Below, piece by piece: positions 16,693-63,086 of a stretch of DNA of 64,000 nucleotides. The translations under genes were made by a program, and so were the position numbers. This DNA comes from a virus (lineage: Duplodnaviria; Heunggongvirae; Uroviricota; Caudoviricetes). The notes below the pieces were generated by a model, which worked only from the letters and a program-made list of their open reading frames with translations, made no database searches and had not been told where the DNA came from. Each line of letters begins with the position of its first letter. The first letter of the stretch is position 1. The stretch covers positions 15,486 through 79,485 of the IMG/VR virus record IMGVR_UViG_2740892219_000010, one strand, 5' to 3'.

Positions 16693-16916
16693 TCATCTGG
16701 TGGTGAACTGTGCAGGGTTGGCGTAACCGGCTAAGTGAACCCGGCGCTTCCACAGAAGCCCCCACACAGCCCACCATAATGCGAATGTGGCCGTGCCTAA
16801 CACATAAAAAAACCGCTAACGCGGCTATGCGTCACTTAGATATCCGGGACGCCAATCCCGGCAACCGATTTTGCGGCTGCGCGGAAACTATAGCCCCGGA
16901 CTTTTTCTAAGTCAAT

Positions 16917-26844: not shown

Positions 26845-27043
26845 ATCAAAGCAATGTGAGGCTCTTCGCCGGGCTGGAATTTTCTTCATGGAAAGGGCTG
26901 ACGGACACCCAAAAACAACCTGGGGCCATTTCATGAACCCAATAAAATTTCGCAATTTACAGGAGGTGACGACGCGAAAAGATGATGAACCTGATTTTGG
27001 AGCAATATTTAATGGCCGGAAAGAGAAAGAACCCAGCAGATAA
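26780..27043 (+). CDS. Putative excisionase-like protein
   Basis: 87 aa directly upstream of and overlapping the integrase. Confidence 0.4.
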   Translation: MKSDHDIITREEMVELTGSPLKSKQCEALRRAGIFFMERADGHPKTTWGHFMNPIKFRNLQEVTTRKDDEPDFGAIFNGRKEKEPSR

Positions 27044-28028
27044 CTGGATGCCGCCTCGTGTTTACCAGGGCAAAGCGGCCTACGAATTCAGGAATAAAGA
27101 TAACAAAGCGATACGCCTGTGCGCATTGGATGCACCACGATCAGCCGTATGGCTGGCATATGAAAAAGCGGTCGGTGACGAAAAAGAAAGAAATACTTTT
27201 CAGGCGCTCGCGGAACAATTCATGACCTCCCCTGATTTTATGGATTTGGCAGTCGAAACCAGGAAAGACTACACAAAATATTCCGGAAAAGTTCTGCCTG
27301 TCTTCGGGAAGATCGACCCGGATAAAATCAAACCTGAACATATTCGGCGCTATATGGATCAACGCGGTTTATCAAGCCGAACTCAGGCAAACAGGGAAAA
27401 AAGCTTTATGTCCCGGGTATTCCGTTGGGGTTATGAACGAGGTTATGTTCAGAGGAATCCTTGTCAGGGAGTTAAACAGTTTAAAGAGACAGCTCGCGAA
27501 CGTTATATTACGGATGAAGAATATCAGGCCGTTTATGAAGTGTCTCCTGACGTCGTTCGCGTGGCAATGGAGATTGCCTACTTATGCGTGGCCAGACAGA
27601 GTGATGTACTTTCATTGCAGAAAGACCAACTGTTCGATTCCGGGATCTACATTCGTCAGGGAAAAACCGGCGTTAAGCAAATCAAAGCCTGGTCGCCTCG
27701 TCTGCAGAAAGCGATAGCTCTGGCTCGTTCTCTGCCATTAAAAACGGGAATCAGTAGTCTGTTTGTGATTCATCAAACTACCGGTGGCAAGTACACCCGT
27801 GATGGTTTTAACTCTCGTTGGCGTGATGTCAAAGCTGCGGCACAGGAAAAATATCCTCATCTGCAAATAGACTTCACATTTCATGATCTGAAAGCAAAAG
27901 GTATCTCTGATCTGGAAGGCAGCCTGGAAGAGAAGCAAGCAATTTCCGGGCATAAGAACCCACGACAGACAGCAGCATATGACCGAAAAGTTAAAGTAGT
28001 GCCCGTAGTTGGTGGCCAGAGAAAATGA
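26982..28028 (+). CDS. int: Tyrosine integrase of the lambdoid prophage
   Basis: 348 aa tyrosine-recombinase-like C-terminal region; 3-prime end 60 bp from the att repeat. True start may be ATG at 27012. Confidence 0.8.
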   Translation: MMNLILEQYLMAGKRKNPADNWMPPRVYQGKAAYEFRNKDNKAIRLCALDAPRSAVWLAYEKAVGDEKERNTFQALAEQFMTSPDFMDLAVETRKDYTKYSGKVLPVFGKIDPDKIKPEHIRRYMDQRGLSSRTQANREKSFMSRVFRWGYERGYVQRNPCQGVKQFKETARERYITDEEYQAVYEVSPDVVRVAMEIAYLCVARQSDVLSLQKDQLFDSGIYIRQGKTGVKQIKAWSPRLQKAIALARSLPLKTGISSLFVIHQTTGGKYTRDGFNSRWRDVKAAAQEKYPHLQIDFTFHDLKAKGISDLEGSLEEKQAISGHKNPRQTAAYDRKVKVVPVVGGQRK

Positions 28029-28087: not shown

Positions 28088-28213
28088 ATACAAAAAAACC
28101 ACCCGAAGGTGGTTTCACGACACTGCTTATTGCTTTGATTTTATTCTTATCTTTCCCATGGTACCCGGAGCGGGACTTGAACCCGCACAGCGCGAACGCC
28201 GAGGGATTTTAAA
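28088..28213. repeat. att direct repeat copy 1 (126 bp): leuZ terminator plus last 55 nt of tRNA-Leu
   Basis: 125/126 identical to 62929-63054; lies between the two convergent integrase genes. Confidence 0.9.
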
Positions 28214-28319: not shown

Positions 28320-29321
28320 TTACCCTCTATTGTCAAAAGGGTTCAATTCAACTGCAGCCTCTAAATGACCTGGAGCAAAATGCGCATAACGCATAGTCAT
28401 TTTTATATCGCTATGCCCCAGTATTTTTTGCAACACAAGAATATTTCCTCCCCGCATCATAAAATGACTGGCAAACGTGTGACGTAGCACATGAGTTAAT
28501 TGCCCATCAGGAAGCTCGATCTTCGCTCTCTTAATTGCAGCGTCAAAAGCCTCATAACATGGTGAAAATAACGCTCCTCGTTTTTTAGGAAGCATAGCCT
28601 GCAATTGAGGTGAAATCGGTACAGTGCGGTTCTTCTTTCCTTTAGTTTTAACAAATGTGATTCGACCGGGCAGCACTTGAGATTGCTTTAATCCTTCAGC
28701 TTCACTCCACCGAGCACCAGTCGCAAGCCCAATACGGACAACAACCCCCAAATCTTTATTCCGTGACTCATCACACGCAATCAGAAGGCGTTCAATCTCA
28801 TCTACATACAGAAACGCCAATTCCTTTTCTTCCTCACGAAACTTGCGAATGCCAGTCAGGGGGTTTTCACCAGACCACTCCCCAAGGCGCTTCAGTTCGG
28901 CAAAAACAGCATGTAGATATGACTGCTCGCGATTAACGGTTGCTTCACTAAGTTTTTTCTTCCCCTTGGGATTCCATTCTCCTGATAACCTCCTTTCCCG
29001 ATAAGTAGCAAACATATTTTTGTCAAACTGAGAAGCAAATGGATCTCCCAGCCTAGAACAAATAGACTCAAGTTTGACTTTGCGCTCTGCACCAGAGGAC
29101 AAGGTTTTACCGTACATCTCAAACCAACGAGCAACCAACTCAGAAAGACGAGGACCAGAACCATCTTGAAACTCGTCTCCAACTCTACTATTCATTAAAC
29201 GGCGCTCATAAGAGAGCGCCTCACTTTTTGTCGCAAACTGTTTACGAATACGTTTTCCCGATGCCCCGTAAGGATAACATTCGCAAAGCCATTTACCTGA
29301 TGGAATCTTACGAACCGACAT
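28320..29321 (-). CDS. int: P2-family tyrosine integrase
   Basis: 333 aa; C-terminal HxxR..Y-type catalytic region (VLRHTFASHF..MRYAHF); adjacent to att copy 1. Confidence 0.85.
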   Translation of the reverse strand: MSVRKIPSGKWLCECYPYGASGKRIRKQFATKSEALSYERRLMNSRVGDEFQDGSGPRLSELVARWFEMYGKTLSSGAERKVKLESICSRLGDPFASQFDKNMFATYRERRLSGEWNPKGKKKLSEATVNREQSYLHAVFAELKRLGEWSGENPLTGIRKFREEEKELAFLYVDEIERLLIACDESRNKDLGVVVRIGLATGARWSEAEGLKQSQVLPGRITFVKTKGKKNRTVPISPQLQAMLPKKRGALFSPCYEAFDAAIKRAKIELPDGQLTHVLRHTFASHFMMRGGNILVLQKILGHSDIKMTMRYAHFAPGHLEAAVELNPFDNRG

Positions 29322-60098: not shown

Positions 60099-60253
60099 AG
60101 TTAGCCCCTTGTATCCGTTAAATGATTCGGCAACAATCATCACCCACCACGCGCGTAATCTCATCCCTGCGCCGTTCTTGCCGCCCGGCGACAACAAAAA
60201 GCAGTAACCCCGCCCGCACACACATGCGACCATGCTGCACAGGGAGGGAGCCG

Positions 60254-61354
60254 ATGATTGACACCACCATGCAACTGTTCAACCAGAGTACTGACCCCGT
60301 GAAGATGCCTGATTTTGATATTCTCGCGGAGGGGAAAACGCTGTCCGGTGTGGCAGAACGCCTGATGAGCCTGTCACTGACCGACAACCGGGGATTTGAA
60401 GCAGACCAGCTCACCATCACGCTGGATGATGCTGATGGTCAGTTGCAGTTGCCGCCACGGGGCGCTCGCCTGACGGTTCTCATTGGCTGGAAAGGCGAAC
60501 CGCTGACAGAAAAAGGCACTTACATTGTTGATGAAATTGCTCATGAAGGACCGCCCGACAGACTGACCATTTCAGCCAGAAGCGCAGATTTTCGGGATGA
60601 ATTTAACGTCAAGCGCGAAGTATCCTGGCATGATGTAACCGTTGAACGCGTGGTGTCTGCAATTGCTCACCGATACGGCCTGAAACCGCAAATCAGCGAA
60701 ATGCTGATGGATATTGAAATCGACCACGCTGACCAGACCGAAGAAAGCGACATGTCCTTCCTTACACGCATGGCGGAAATGCTGGGCGCAATCACCACGG
60801 TAAAAAGCGGTAATCTGTTATTCATCATGCCAGGTGGTGGCGTGAACGCGCAGGGAAAACCATTGCCATCGTTTGCCATCACACGCAGCAGCGGCGATCG
60901 CCATCAGTTTCGCATTGCTGACCGCGAGGCGTATACAGGTGTACGCGCCTACTGGCTTGATCTTAATTACGGGAAAAAGAAAAAAGTCAGCGTGAAACGC
61001 CGCAAACCGAAAAAGGAGAAAAGCAGCAGCCGGGAAGGCGACTATATGGCAGGCGCGGAAGGCAACGTGTTTGTGTTACGCAAGACTTATCAGAACGAGC
61101 AGGCAGCAAGACGCGCAGCGGCGGCAAAGTGGCAGCAGCTACAACGCGGAGCCGCATCATTCTCCATCACGCTGGCACGTGGTCGCGCTGAACTCTACCC
61201 CGAAATGCATGGCACGGTGGCAGGCTTTAAAAGCGACATCGACAATCAGGACTGGATTATTGCAAAAGTTGAGCATTCTATTGATAACAGTGGCTTTACC
61301 ACACAGCTTGAGCTTGAAGCAAAAATCCCGGAATGGATAGCAGAAACAGAGTGA
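60254..61354 (+). CDS. D: Tail protein gpD-like
   Basis: ATG 60254 with RBS agggagggag; 366 aa, P2 D size; upstream of ogr. Confidence 0.75.
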   Translation: MIDTTMQLFNQSTDPVKMPDFDILAEGKTLSGVAERLMSLSLTDNRGFEADQLTITLDDADGQLQLPPRGARLTVLIGWKGEPLTEKGTYIVDEIAHEGPPDRLTISARSADFRDEFNVKREVSWHDVTVERVVSAIAHRYGLKPQISEMLMDIEIDHADQTEESDMSFLTRMAEMLGAITTVKSGNLLFIMPGGGVNAQGKPLPSFAITRSSGDRHQFRIADREAYTGVRAYWLDLNYGKKKKVSVKRRKPKKEKSSSREGDYMAGAEGNVFVLRKTYQNEQAARRAAAAKWQQLQRGAASFSITLARGRAELYPEMHGTVAGFKSDIDNQDWIIAKVEHSIDNSGFTTQLELEAKIPEWIAETE

Positions 61355-61395: not shown

Positions 61396-61656
61396 ATGTT
61401 CCGTTGTCCGCTTTGTGGCGCATCTGCCCGTATCCGCACCAGTCGTTCGGAAAATGATTCAGATACCGTACGGAAAAAATATTACCAGTGTAACAACCTG
61501 GAATGCGGCGTATGCTTCTCAACACTGGAGGCTTTCCATAAATTCACATCGAAACACGCCCCCGGCGTTCACTCTTCAGAGGGCATCCCGTGGAATGAGC
61601 TACCAGCTTCACACAGGGGAAACAACCAGATGAGTTTGCCCTTACCTCAGAATTAA
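61396..61656 (+). CDS. ogr: Ogr/Delta-type zinc-finger late-gene activator
   Basis: MFRCPLCGASARIRTSR...YYQCNNLEC parallels recalled P2 Ogr (MFHCPLC..RTSRY..YHQCQN). Confidence 0.8.
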   Translation: MFRCPLCGASARIRTSRSENDSDTVRKKYYQCNNLECGVCFSTLEAFHKFTSKHAPGVHSSEGIPWNELPASHRGNNQMSLPLPQN

Positions 61657-61846
61657 CAGGCTGAATTGCCGGAGTAACAAAAAAGCGATAAATTACGCGC
61701 GGGTGCCTTTCGGCTGATGGCTGGAGGGAATACCCGAAGGCCAGATGTGGAAAGGCCCCGGAAAACATTTCTGTTTAACCGAGGCCCTGACCATCTAACC
61801 TTAGCAAGTGATAGGTTAGCGCCTCCCCAAAAAAGGAGCAAGCGCT

Positions 61847-61987
61847 ATGTCGCAAAAATCGCTTATGGCCATCACGTTCTGCGTGACGGTAATCCTCATC
61901 ATCTGGATGCTGCACGGTTCGCTGTGTGAAATACGGATGAGCTTCTGGGGAGCGGAGTTTGCGGCGTTCTTACAGTGTAAGCAGTAA
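61847..61987 (+). CDS. hok: Hok/Gef-family type I toxin
   Basis: 46 aa MSQKSLMAITFCVTVILIIWMLHGSLCEIRMSFWGAEFAAFLQCKQ; SLCEIR and E.AAF match recalled Hok; overlapping mok-like frame 61717-61929; RBS aaaaaggag. Confidence 0.7.
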   Translation: MSQKSLMAITFCVTVILIIWMLHGSLCEIRMSFWGAEFAAFLQCKQ

Positions 61988-62076
61988 GGAAACCGCGACG
62001 GGGGAGCAATCCCCCGTCAATCGGTTGCTAAGGCTGGCCGAAGTGGCACCCTATCCCATGGACACAAACAAGAAAA

Positions 62077-62107
62077 CCCGCAGCGTAAAAACTGCGGGTT
62101 TTCTTTT
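62077..62107 (+). terminator. Intrinsic terminator downstream of hok-like gene
   Basis: cccgcag-cgtaaaaa-ctgcggg followed by ttttctttt. Confidence 0.7.
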
Positions 62108-62178
62108 GGAGCTCTCACTTAGCTAAGGTACCGTTAACAACACACATAATGCTCGCAAAACAAACCAGTTAAAAGTGA

Positions 62179-62460
62179 TTACTCAGCATTCTCCTGCTTC
62201 CATTGCCGGATCATTTCATCCGTAACATCACTCTCATAACATACCACGTCATACCCTCCAGTACGGCTATATGCACTGCGTCTACCACATCTACTACCAT
62301 TCCTTGCATGATTATAAGGACACGCACAATTGCCTGGATACGATTCAATGGATTCTTTAATTATTTCTTTCTTGATCTGAGCATCAGACTTTCCTGTTGC
62401 TGCATACCCACTAAAAGATACCAAACAAAAACAGATTGCCATTAATAAACCACATCGCAT
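62179..62460 (-). CDS. Hypothetical small secreted Cys-containing protein (cargo)
   Basis: Start taken at MRCGLLMAICF; hydrophobic signal-like N-terminus; AT-rich. Confidence 0.4.
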   Translation of the reverse strand: MRCGLLMAICFCLVSFSGYAATGKSDAQIKKEIIKESIESYPGNCACPYNHARNGSRCGRRSAYSRTGGYDVVCYESDVTDEMIRQWKQENAE

Positions 62461-62928
62461 ACCGATACACTCTATTACTAACCAATCATAACCCACATCA
62501 TAAAATCGAGATGTGGAGTACAACACCTTTAACAAGAAGGTGTCATAACGATAATATGCCGTGCAATTCATCAAAAAAAAGATCTATATCAAAGAGATAG
62601 AGCTCTTATCAGTGCTGCAGACATCGGCATTCGAGGCAGCAGAAAAACAGTAAATCTGACGAATTTGCCTTTTCTCAGGATGTTGTCAGATTAAAAAAGA
62701 CAGATTAGCGCAGGTACCTTTTGGTGGATGGCGGGAGGAAAAATGAAGTCGAGTGGAAAAATCCCAGAAAAATTTTTGTTTAACCGAGGTCCTAGTTCAC
62801 TATGCGAAATACGGAGGAGCTGCAGGAGAATTCGGCTTCATCCTTAGAGTTTAAACAGCACGTGCACTACTATTGTTTCTGCATATCGCCACACCATCGC
62901 CACTCCACCGCCATTGCACAAAATACAA

Positions 62929-63054
62929 ATACAAAAAAACCACCCGAAGGTGGTTTCACGACACTGCTTATTGCTTTGATTTTATTCTTATCTTCCCCAT
63001 GGTACCCGGAGCGGGACTTGAACCCGCACAGCGCGAACGCCGAGGGATTTTAAA
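62929..63054. repeat. att direct repeat copy 2 (126 bp), overlapping the 3-prime half of intact tRNA-Leu
   Basis: 125/126 identical to 28088-28213. Confidence 0.9.
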
Positions 63055-63086
63055 TCCCTTGTGTCTACCGATTCCACCATCCGGGC
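63000..63086 (-). tRNA. leuZ: tRNA-Leu
   Basis: 87-nt minus-strand sequence, reverse complement matches recalled E. coli leuZ including 3-prime CCA. Confidence 0.9.

Follow-up and report, generated by a model that had tools for sequence, protein, structure and literature searches.

A hok/sok-type toxin-antitoxin cassette, with its predicted RNA elements, and a truncated relative at the att site of a P2-like prophage

What is the small reading frame that follows the late-gene activator ogr in this prophage, and what could it be doing for the phage that carries it? The initial annotation proposed a Hok-type toxin with a leader frame and an antisense RNA, a broken second copy further on and a role in holding the prophage in its host. 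In the following, the window is the whole 64-kb stretch of DNA that was analysed. Our data make it very probable that the first copy (~61666-62107) is a complete hok/sok-type type I toxin-antitoxin (TA) cassette, carried as cargo between ogr and the att site. Membership of the peptide in the Hok family, purifying selection, conservation of both promoters and a predicted refolding of the mRNA are established here.

The prophage and its Hok gene

The setting is defined by the following features.

28088-28213, no strand assigned: attL copy of the att repeat, made of the 3' 55 nt of tRNA-Leu and 71 bp downstream
28320-29321, minus strand: tyrosine integrase gene adjoining attL (Pfam Int_N 8.5e-32, Phage_integrase 2.5e-22)
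60122-61354, plus strand: P2 gpD-like tail/baseplate hub gene (Pfam Phage_GPD 1.2e-17), the open reading frame being an upper bound
61396-61656, plus strand: ogr/Delta late-gene activator gene (Pfam Ogr_Delta 53.4 bits; annotated in RefSeq)
61847-61987, plus strand: hok toxin gene, 46 aa (Pfam HOK_GEF, PHROG 251, RefSeq)
62929-63054, no strand assigned: attR copy of the att repeat, overlapping an intact tRNA-Leu (63000-63086, minus strand)

The cassette lies in an E. coli prophage of the P88/P2-like kind, integrated at tRNA-Leu (leuZ), with a 126-bp att direct repeat at its ends. The two copies of the repeat differ at one position, which separates identical blocks of 66 and 59 nt, and from about 62929 onwards the sequence is common to nearly all other complete E. 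coli genomes, K-12 derivatives included. The gpD-like gene and ogr lie at one end, the integrase gene at the other, and the att repeat is at a tRNA gene, as in P2-like phages (Peduoviridae, P88/Xuanwuvirus-type). From ogr to hok, the prophage shares 93-96% identity with P88, Chuche and Xuanwuvirus P884B11, and at least 80% of the ogr-to-leuZ stretch is present in 317 E. coli genomes. The cassette is also found in lambdoid Stx phages, near tail and membrane-protein genes; there the homology begins at the hok promoter and spans exactly the hok -35 to fbi, the fold-back inhibitory element located below.

That a Hok-family toxin frame of 46 aa lies just after ogr was borne out. The peptide scores 30.3 bits against Pfam HOK_GEF PF01848 (cut-off 22) and 3e-23 against PHROG 251, and RefSeq annotates it as WP_000078911.1, a 'Hok/Gef family protein'. 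It is a small peptide with a single transmembrane (TM) segment, the conserved Cys/Thr and LCE(I/V)R...EVAAF, as seen in alignment with HokB, HokC and R1 Hok. Homologous cassettes were collected with a back-translated DNA pattern of the 46-aa peptide, and in all 71 distinct ones the Hok frame is intact; its pN/pS of ~0.25 indicates coding constraint. The gene is already known. Apart from RefSeq, it is named in the records of P88 and related phages, which label it 'MokW-like host killing', the same label being on PHROG 251. Cluster 72 of the 2026 Hok catalogue (Escalera-Maurer et al., bioRxiv 10.1101/2025.08.07.668861) covers P88 gp52 and WP_000078911.1. Two peptides of this cluster, 72_1621 and 72_1589, were cloned for overexpression toxicity assays and are absent from the three non-toxic peptides among 45 (bioRxiv 10.1101/2025.08.07.668861). 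The first is identical to the window's Hok at 44 of 46 positions, and the assayed peptide is not the exact version found here (M7, V15); the second is the Stx-phage variant of the cluster-72 Hok.

Promoters, RNA elements and predicted refolding

The RNA parts of the cassette were located as follows.

61666-61694, plus strand: hok promoter, -35 TTGCCG (61666-61671), 17-nt spacer, -10 TAAATT (61689-61694)
61701-62107, plus strand: predicted full-length hok mRNA of ~407 nt, its ends placed by leader alignment and by the intrinsic terminator
61701-61715, plus strand: tac element at the mRNA 5' end; predicted partner fbi before truncation, ucb after it
61745-61805, minus strand: predicted Sok-like antisense RNA of ~61 nt, the span transferred from the K-12 sokC/sokB annotation
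61750-61761, plus strand: ucb (upstream complementary box); predicted partner CCGAGGCC (61779-61786) before truncation, tac after it
61781-61784, plus strand: GAGG where the mok Shine-Dalgarno (SD) sequence would be, present in 69 of 71 cassettes
61790-61804, plus strand: variable loop that the target hairpin presents; its sequence complements the 5' tail of Sok, and it is a hairpin loop in the truncated fold
61810-61826, plus strand: dcb, which is also the hok anti-SD (GCGCCUCC), predicted to pair with the hok SD or with GAGGC depending on the form
61813-61841, minus strand: sok promoter, -35 TTGCTC (61841-61836), 17-nt spacer, -10 TAACCT (61818-61813)
61833-61838, plus strand: hok SD AAGGAG, read from the sequence, sequestered in the full-length fold
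61997-62018, plus strand: 3' stem-loop with compensatory changes, presumed end of the processed mRNA
62036-62051, plus strand: fbi, with the core GGCACCC at 62045-62051
62070-62107, both strands: bidirectional intrinsic terminator, common to hok and a converging 93-aa gene

This RNA anatomy of a hok/sok locus is conserved across the 71 distinct homologous cassettes. The hok -10 is TAGATT, TAAATT or TAGAAT in 68 of them and aligns with TATAAT of K-12 hokC. At the 5' end of the mRNA, GGGTGCC lines up with the beginning of the K-12 leaders of hokB and hokC and with that of the Rfam RF01794 model. The tac element is identical in 65 of the 71. The loop at 61790-61804 is the most variable 10-nt bin within the cassette (0.95 bit). 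The clean terminator claimed after the Hok frame is present, as a stem of 62077-62083 with 62092-62098 followed by TTTTCTTTT. When 68 sequences were compared, two pairs of the 3' stem-loop showed compensatory changes, in 22 and 20 of them respectively.

It had also been claimed that a sok-like antisense RNA would be found on the minus strand around 61700-61850, and the conserved promoter at 61813-61841 and the predicted RNA running from ~61805 to 61745 agree with this. The sok -10, TAACCT, is identical in 70 of 71 cassettes and the TTG of the -35 is invariant; the spacer is 17 nt in 65 cassettes and 18 nt in six. The position of promoter and hairpin matches that in K-12 sokB/sokC and in the R1-type locus. 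The predicted Sok would fold into a single-stranded 5' tail and a hairpin (-30.8 kcal/mol, z -4.7), past which the U-tract is just 3 nt. A generic scan for sigma-70 promoters and terminators missed the sok promoter and found no terminator for Sok; the promoter call is thus based on homology and conservation. Sok expression and processing of the hok mRNA are what we infer from these sequence features.

The full-length mRNA has a minimum-energy fold of -163.4 kcal/mol (z -7.2), in which nucleotides 1-15 are paired to 62036-62051. The same tac/fbi pairing appears in the minimum-energy fold of 67 of 68 homologues, with a mean 5'-3' pairing probability of 0.98; this support is thermodynamic, without two-sided covariation, because the 5' side is invariant. 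In the RNAalifold consensus of the 68 sequences, a local 5' hairpin and a GCGG/CCGC helix were chosen over the 5'-3' helix, and the dcb helix was retained. When the window's mRNA is truncated, tac is predicted to pair with ucb and GAGGC with dcb. In the window dcb pairs with the hok SD in the full-length form (p=0.97) and with GAGGC in the truncated form (p ~0.9). In the 68 homologues the partners of GAGGC lie upstream in the full-length form (0.78) and downstream after truncation (0.57). Refolding of tac onto ucb and of the GAGG box onto dcb is predicted in silico both for the window and for the mean of the 68 homologues. The opening cost of the stretch from the hok SD to the AUG falls from 11.9 to 7.2 kcal/mol upon truncation, and the SD hairpin (p=0.97) gives way to weak pairs of 2-3 bp (p ~0.5). 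The idea that truncation frees the hok SD entirely was supported in part only, as opening would still cost 7.2 kcal/mol and the mean unpaired probability of the SD is 0.08.

By analogy with plasmid R1, the cassette could work in the following way. A weak constitutive promoter would give a stable hok mRNA of ~407 nt with tac locked onto fbi; in this form ucb would hold GAGG, and the anti-SD would hold the hok ribosome-binding site in a 10-bp hairpin. Slow 3' trimming would remove fbi, upon which tac would switch to ucb and GAGGC to dcb/anti-SD, forming a hairpin that presents the variable loop. A short, unstable Sok, made from the minus-strand promoter that overlaps the hok SD, would bind this loop and the duplex would be destroyed. 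If the supply of Sok stops, the 46-aa Hok would be made and would depolarise the inner membrane.

The mok-phase frame and the second copy

Three further features are needed here.

61717-61929, plus strand: frame of 70 aa in phase with mok that lacks conservation and is probably not a gene
62179-62460, minus strand: AT-rich gene for a 93-aa Cys-rich protein (RefSeq hypothetical protein; PHROG 27544, 2e-58)
62705-62860, plus strand: hok remnant (copy 2), a leader (62705-62794) fused to SLCEIR... codons (62796-62830)

An overlapping upstream frame had been placed in the mok position. The frame exists, at 61717-61929, but its reading as mok did not hold. It has no family match in Pfam or PHROG, and it stays open in the window solely through a TTA that stands in place of one in-frame TAA; the mok-phase frame of P88, Chuche and the Stx phage is closed by an in-frame TAA and has no start codon. 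It is open from about -169, with an ATG at -130, in 15 of 71 cassettes. An ATG, GTG or TTG 4-13 nt past GAGG is absent from 68 of the 69 cassettes that carry this box, and the R1-type position of the mok ATG, 8 nt past GAGG, reads ATC, TAT, GCA or GTC in this Hok subgroup. In 27 of 69 cassettes a leader ORF in another frame than hok extends to the hok SD; the other 42 have none. A substitute leader ORF from the conserved ATG at 61745 or GTG at 61747 was also considered; it gives no conserved peptide and was rejected, because frame-shifting indels among the homologues move the stop codon.

In R1 the mok leader ORF is mandatory for translation of Hok (PMC9841398). With mok absent from most of the cassettes, translation of Hok may therefore be poor or work differently. 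We tentatively consider, as a possibility with the odds against it, that the cluster-72 cassettes are a mok-less variant of hok/sok in which GAGG is kept solely as an element of the RNA switch. GAGG would then partner ucb in the locked mRNA and dcb/anti-SD in the processed one, the 3' processing itself would loosen the hok ribosome-binding site, and Sok would recapture GAGGC or trigger cleavage rather than block translation of a leader peptide. If true, this would be a second regulatory solution in the best-studied type I TA family. The non-conserved mok leader in cluster 72, the one uncommon trait of the cassette, in any case bears on the generality of the translational coupling described for R1.

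A degenerate second copy, with a hok leader fused to a fragment still encoding CEIR, was indeed recovered. The segment 61693-61789 aligns with 62705-62794 at a score of 71 (best of 300 shuffles, 27), and 61918-61952 aligns with 62796-62830 at 28 of 35 identical positions and a score of 35 (best of 500 shuffles, 30). Since the two local alignments are contiguous, copy 2 corresponds to copy 1 minus 61790-61917, a deletion of 128 nt. Lost with it are the Sok promoter, the hok SD, the start codon and the codons of the transmembrane helix. In the 64-kb window the motif L-C-E-I-R is encoded at just two places, copies 1 and 2. Copy 2 has no match in Rfam. It occurs, unannotated, in ~615 E. coli genomes and four IMG/VR contigs; an intact parent was sought in phages, E. 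coli genomes and IMG/VR, and every inspected copy has the same truncated form. Judged by its sequence, copy 2 is the dead remnant of an older cassette. It abuts the att site as had been claimed, with attR beginning at 62929, one base past the end of the stretch that the initial annotation described.

An AT-rich gene for a secreted protein had been placed between the two copies. The gene is present at 62179-62460, with a GC content of 0.35-0.43 against ~0.51 for the ogr/hok region, and the N-terminus of its 93-aa product has a hydrophobic, signal-like segment as judged by eye. Pfam, NCBIfam and PDB gave no relative of this protein.

Possible roles and relation to known hok systems

The first guess at a role, an addiction module stabilising the prophage, is plausible by analogy with plasmid R1. 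Other roles need to be weighed against it. The cassette could aid the phage itself, if Sok falls and Hok rises during lytic growth and the damage to the membrane speeds lysis and raises release. The sole prophage hok/sok studied experimentally, hokW-sokW of Sp5, is reported to assist lysis and phage release; when the locus was deleted, half as many phages came out after mitomycin C treatment (PMC8621323). The occurrence of the cluster-72 cassette in Stx phages fits such a role, as does its place directly downstream of the late-gene activator ogr in P2-like phages. However, HokW differs (a 51-aa Hok with another leader, as seen by comparison of primer sequences), and the sequence shows no link between phage late control and either promoter, hok or sok. 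P2-like prophages are, moreover, typically not SOS-inducible, and on balance we regard a lytic function as unlikely. Alternatively, the cassette could be an abortive-infection or exclusion module, in which an invader shuts off host transcription, the supply of Sok ends and Hok kills the cell first. The slot between hok and att/int has variable cargo, a pattern typical of accessory or defence sites; Chuche has a com/methyltransferase pair there, and P88 and the window have small genes that differ. PMC8621323 cites hok/sok as implicated in phage defence. This role seems improbable to us.

It is also conceivable that the cassette is a selfish, decaying and silent passenger, where the mok start has been lost, the hok SD stays closed and Hok is hardly ever made. 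The missing start codon past GAGG in 68 of 69 cassettes would agree with this, and so would the hok SD, which is still paired after truncation (unpaired 0.08; 7.2 kcal/mol to open). The dead copy 1 kb away would show the fate of such cassettes. Several chromosomal hok loci of K-12 are inactivated, and the annotated K-12 IS186 copy ends 20 bp from the hokC stop codon. Against this, the Hok frame is intact in 71 of 71 cassettes with pN/pS ~0.25, and P2-like and lambdoid phages alike have kept the two promoters and the refolding elements, which is unexpected for a silent gene. We therefore hold a silent passenger to be quite unlikely.

The preferred reading, a complete hok/sok-type cassette, can be set beside the known systems. 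The K-12 hokA-E/sokA-C loci have homologous leaders with the same 5' GGGTGC motif, and sokB and sokC map onto 61745-61805, but HokC and HokB share only 22-24% peptide identity with the window's Hok, and hokB and hokC carry annotated mok genes. HokA is the best NCBIfam match; its score of 35.1 bits against the NF007290 equivalog cut-off of 89 means that the peptide is not a HokA orthologue. The Rfam family RF01794, which is called 'sok' and is actually the sense-strand hok leader, scores 45 bits here (E=3.8e-8), below the gathering threshold of 59, compared with 48 in P88, 42 in the Stx phage, 118 in K-12 hokC and 110 in hokB.

The likeness to plasmid R1 hok/sok lies in a single-TM Hok with the C..T...SLCEIR...E(V/F)AAF motif (30% peptide identity), in the tac/fbi locking of 5' and 3' ends, the ucb/dcb refolding and the GAGG box, and in an opposite-strand sok promoter whose spacer is 17 nt and whose -10 has nearly the same surroundings (AGGATAGCCTC in R1, AGGTTAGCGCCTC here). 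The sok promoter of the R1-type locus, TTGCGC-17-TATCCT, has the same layout as TTGCTC-17-TAACCT here. The two differ in that 8 nt past GAGG there is an ATG in the R1-type locus and none here, that Hok has 52 aa in R1 and 46 aa here, that the sok -35 overlaps the hok SD here and lies upstream of it in R1, and that the location is a prophage rather than a plasmid. With hokW-sokW of the Stx2 prophage Sp5, the cassette shares its carriage by a prophage; that system has been experimentally shown to be a type I TA (PMC8621323), with a toxin of 51 aa and a different leader, and the cluster-72 cassette has another place than hokW-sokW in Stx phages. As prophage-borne hok/sok has already been studied by experiment, the value of the present work is chiefly correct annotation. 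The 2026 catalogue (bioRxiv 10.1101/2025.08.07.668861) deals with the coding sequence and explicitly leaves aside mok, Sok and mRNA structure; what is added here is an explicit map of the unannotated RNA parts of cluster 72, namely promoters, Sok, tac, ucb, dcb, fbi and terminator, together with the lack of a conserved mok leader in this cluster and an unannotated hok remnant adjoining attR.

Prophage setting of the hok cassette

At its right end the window consists of E. coli chromosome, where pgsA and the tRNA genes glyW, cysT and leuZ are all on the minus strand. Sequence common to almost all other complete E. coli genomes, among them K-12 derivatives, starts at ~62929. To the left lies an element bounded by a direct repeat, with a tyrosine integrase at one end and gpD and ogr at the other. 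The stretch from ogr to hok shows 93-96% identity to phage P88, phage Chuche and Xuanwuvirus P884B11. The repeat, the integrase, the position of gpD and ogr and the P88-like identity thus make the hok region att-proximal cargo of a P88/P2-like prophage, whose attR coincides exactly with the end of the region.

Features of the hok region and its prophage boundaries
28088-28213 and 62929-63054: 126-bp direct repeat, one mismatch (3' 55 nt of tRNA-Leu plus 71 bp downstream)
28320-29321, minus: tyrosine integrase adjoining attL
61666-61671 and 61689-61694, plus: hok promoter, -35 TTGCCG, 17-nt spacer, -10 TAAATT
61841-61836 and 61818-61813, minus: predicted sok promoter, -35 TTGCTC, 17-nt spacer, -10 TAACCT
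61847-61987, plus: hok toxin ORF, product MSQKSLMAITFCVTVILIIWMLHGSLCEIRMSFWGAEFAAFLQCKQ
61997-62018, plus: 3' stem-loop, after which the simulated cut was placed
62070-62107, downstream of fbi (3' fold-back inhibitory element): bidirectional intrinsic terminator
62179-62460, minus: AT-rich gene, 93-aa product with signal-like N-terminus
63000-63086, minus: leuZ tRNA gene

Cargo between hok and the integrase/att differs among related phages. The slot holds a com-like gene and a DNA methyltransferase in Chuche (L007, 3115-4057), a small hypothetical gene in P88 (L002, 2926-3168), and a secreted-protein gene and a hok remnant in the window. Directly left of the middle att copy is a second tyrosine integrase ORF (26982-28028, plus; Pfam Phage_integrase and Phage_int_M), and ~10 kb further left lie isrK and a C4 antisense RNA with a1/b1 targets (16696-16893, minus), all above the Rfam gathering score. 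Thus, another prophage-like element appears to stand in tandem with the P2-like prophage at leuZ.

The first hok copy is a genuine but ordinary hok/sok-type cassette that is already annotated; its ORF is labelled 'Hok/Gef family protein' in RefSeq and 'MokW-like host killing' in phage records. The initial annotation had placed a Hok-family toxin frame here, and the ORF indeed scores 30.3 bits with Pfam HOK_GEF (cut-off 22) and matches PHROG 251 (3e-23). The peptide scores under the cut-offs of both the NCBIfam HokA and Hok models. It retains the family motifs, with an identity of 22% to HokC, 24% to HokB and 30% to R1 Hok. The R1 sequence used in the comparison is matched at 100% by more than 2600 plasmids. 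At least 80% of the stretch from ogr to leuZ is present in 317 E. coli genomes.

Conservation was assessed on 71 distinct cassettes from the window, P88-like phages, Stx phages, Salmonella and IMG/VR contigs. The Hok ORF is intact in all of them, with 12 protein variants and a pN/pS of ~0.25. The copy in lambdoid Stx phages is homologous from the hok -35 exactly as far as the fbi box, and the cassette thus acts as one unit. The hok pattern also matched two contigs labelled Gram-positive, a Planococcaceae MAG (L009) and a Vagococcus sp. (L011). The Vagococcus match aligns near-identically to the E. coli P88-type cassette; that of L009 contains Ns and was left out of the alignment, and hence of this comparison. 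Contamination or mis-binning, not true hosts, is likely to be behind both matches.

Predicted mRNA refolding and antisense control

Homology, conservation and folding give good support to both the identity of the cassette and an RNA-level mechanism. Transcription of hok would start at ~61701. The mRNA 5' end (tac), GGGTGCCTTTCGGCT, is identical in 65 of the 71 cassettes, and the GGCACCC core at the 3' side (62045-62051) is essentially invariant. The terminator that had been noted after hok is present and bidirectional. Folding of the 356-nt full-length region gives -163.4 kcal/mol (z -7.2) and pairs nt 1-15 with 62036-62051; this 5'-3' pairing is found in the minimum-energy fold of 67 of 68 homologues (mean probability 0.98).

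In the full-length fold the upstream complementary box (ucb) GGCCCCGG (61754-61761) pairs with CCGAGGCC, while GCGCCUCC (61819-61826) sequesters, within a 10-bp hairpin (p ~0.97), the hok SD GGAG together with the bases that immediately precede the start codon. After the simulated cut, the mRNA 5' end pairs with GAAAGGCCCC (61750-61759) and GAGGC pairs with GCCUC (61821-61825), giving a hairpin with 61796-61809 as its loop. The predicted switch is the same as that of R1 hok/sok, where tac/fbi and SD/ucb pairing changes to tac/ucb and SD/dcb (downstream complementary box) pairing (PMC9841398). Averaged over 68 homologues, upstream pairing of GAGGC is 0.78 in full-length versus 0.33 in truncated RNA and downstream pairing rises from 0.00 to 0.57. 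Upon truncation, the cost of opening hok from SD to AUG drops from 11.9 to 7.2 kcal/mol. The RNAalifold consensus retains the GAGGC/GCCUC helix and lacks the 5'-3' helix. Within the 3' stem-loop it reveals compensatory substitutions, from GC to AU in 22 sequences and from AU to CG or GC in 20.

An antisense RNA had been expected on the minus strand around 61700-61850. Mapping of the annotated K-12 sokC/sokB through the alignment puts the predicted Sok equivalent within this interval, from ~61805 to ~61745. Generic scans for promoters and terminators detected neither the sok promoter nor a Sok terminator. The putative -10 TAACCT is identical in 70 of 71 cassettes and the TTG of the -35 is invariant; 65 cassettes have a 17-nt spacer and six an 18-nt one. 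An R1-type plasmid locus is laid out alike (TTGCGC-17-TATCCT), with a near-identical -10 context. In the predicted Sok RNA an unpaired 5' tail precedes a stable hairpin (-30.8 kcal/mol, z -4.7), after which comes only a short U-run. The most variable patch of the cassette, 61790-61799 (0.95 bit), lies in and beside the loop which the Sok 5' tail would contact, and this fits a specificity-determining recognition region. The Rfam model RF01794 ('sok antitoxin') represents the hok mRNA leader in sense orientation; its K-12 matches (L004, L005) are on the hokC/hokB strand at 118/110 bits, opposite the annotated sokC/sokB, and the strand of its matches should not be taken as that of Sok. Its threshold of 59 bits is missed by the window (61701-61835; 45), P88 (48) and the Stx phage (42).

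The hok remnant and its neighbouring gene

The two copies are related by two contiguous local alignments, 61693-61789 with 62705-62794 (score 71; shuffle maximum 27) and 61918-61952 with 62796-62830 (score 35; shuffle maximum 30). The second copy thus amounts to a hok cassette that has lost 128 nt internally, in agreement with the earlier suspicion of a truncated copy. The deletion took away the promoter and 5' end of Sok together with the SD, start codon and transmembrane-helix codons of hok, and what is left is a dead remnant. It had no match in Rfam. The remnant occurs in ~615 E. coli genomes and on four IMG/VR contigs, and none of these copies is annotated; all four IMG/VR copies share the truncated junction, and alignment to E. 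coli genomes is uninterrupted among the matches listed. No intact parent was found among phages, E. coli genomes or IMG/VR contigs.

The AT-rich secreted-protein gene reported between the copies is present. The mature part of its product has four cysteines (CxC...C...C), and its sole match is PHROG 27544 (2e-58), labelled unknown function; no relatives were found in Pfam, NCBIfam or PDB. The gene and the remnant occur together in ~583 E. coli genomes, including O157:H7 strains, which keep both and miss the first hok copy, its place being taken by an IS30 element. In O157:H7 RV06 (L003, 2484-4329) IS30 shortens gpD of the equivalent P2-like prophage and ogr and the first copy are gone; the small secreted-protein gene and the remnant adjoining leuZ are retained.

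The mok leader frame and related Hok systems

The subgroup of the first copy is cluster 72 in the supplements of a 2026 preprint cataloguing Hok homologues (bioRxiv 10.1101/2025.08.07.668861). The initial annotation had described an overlapping frame in the mok position. A 70-aa frame does exist (61717-61929), but as a gene it is not conserved among the cassettes. The R1-type locus has an ATG 8 nt after GAGG, whereas cluster 72 cassettes have non-start codons there (ATC in 19, TAT in 14, GCA in 12, GTC in nine, and others), and 68 of 69 cassettes have no ATG, GTG or TTG 4-13 nt past GAGG. An out-of-frame leader ORF reaches the hok SD in only 27 of 69. K-12 mok starts align with ~61795 of the window. 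In P88, Chuche and the Stx phage a TAA lying 46 nt upstream of the hok ATG closes the mok-phase frame, and no start codon follows it; the window has TTA at this position.

In R1, Hok is made only if mok is translated as far as the hok SD (PMC9841398), and the lack of conservation of mok therefore puts the mode of Hok translation in cluster 72 in question: Hok may be translated directly after refolding, or be largely silent. This is the one non-trivial point here, and it is a modest lead, not a discovery, because mok is hard to call (bioRxiv 10.1101/2025.08.07.668861) and frames vary in the R1-type plasmid. In that IncFII plasmid, pMTY1886 (L135, ~264-479), the ATG after GAGG lies 57 nt upstream of the hok ATG, in frame and stop-free, and would therefore lengthen Hok instead of giving rise to a Mok of its own; the RefSeq annotation of this hok covers just its final 33 codons.

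The catalogue found Hok homologues enriched in prophages (23% observed against 5% expected) and deliberately left out mok, Sok and mRNA structure (bioRxiv 10.1101/2025.08.07.668861). Its cluster 72 peptide 72_1621 is identical to the Hok of the window at 44 of 46 residues, and the Stx-phage variant is 72_1589. The two were cloned, and only 19_179, 60_1482 and 69_1540 are named as non-toxic among the 45 peptides tested (bioRxiv 10.1101/2025.08.07.668861), so the toxicity test has in effect been done on near-identical peptides. The cassette could serve addiction, lysis assistance, phage exclusion or selfish persistence. The hokW-sokW locus of Stx2 prophage Sp5 has been proven to be a type I TA system and aids lysis and phage release (PMC8621323).
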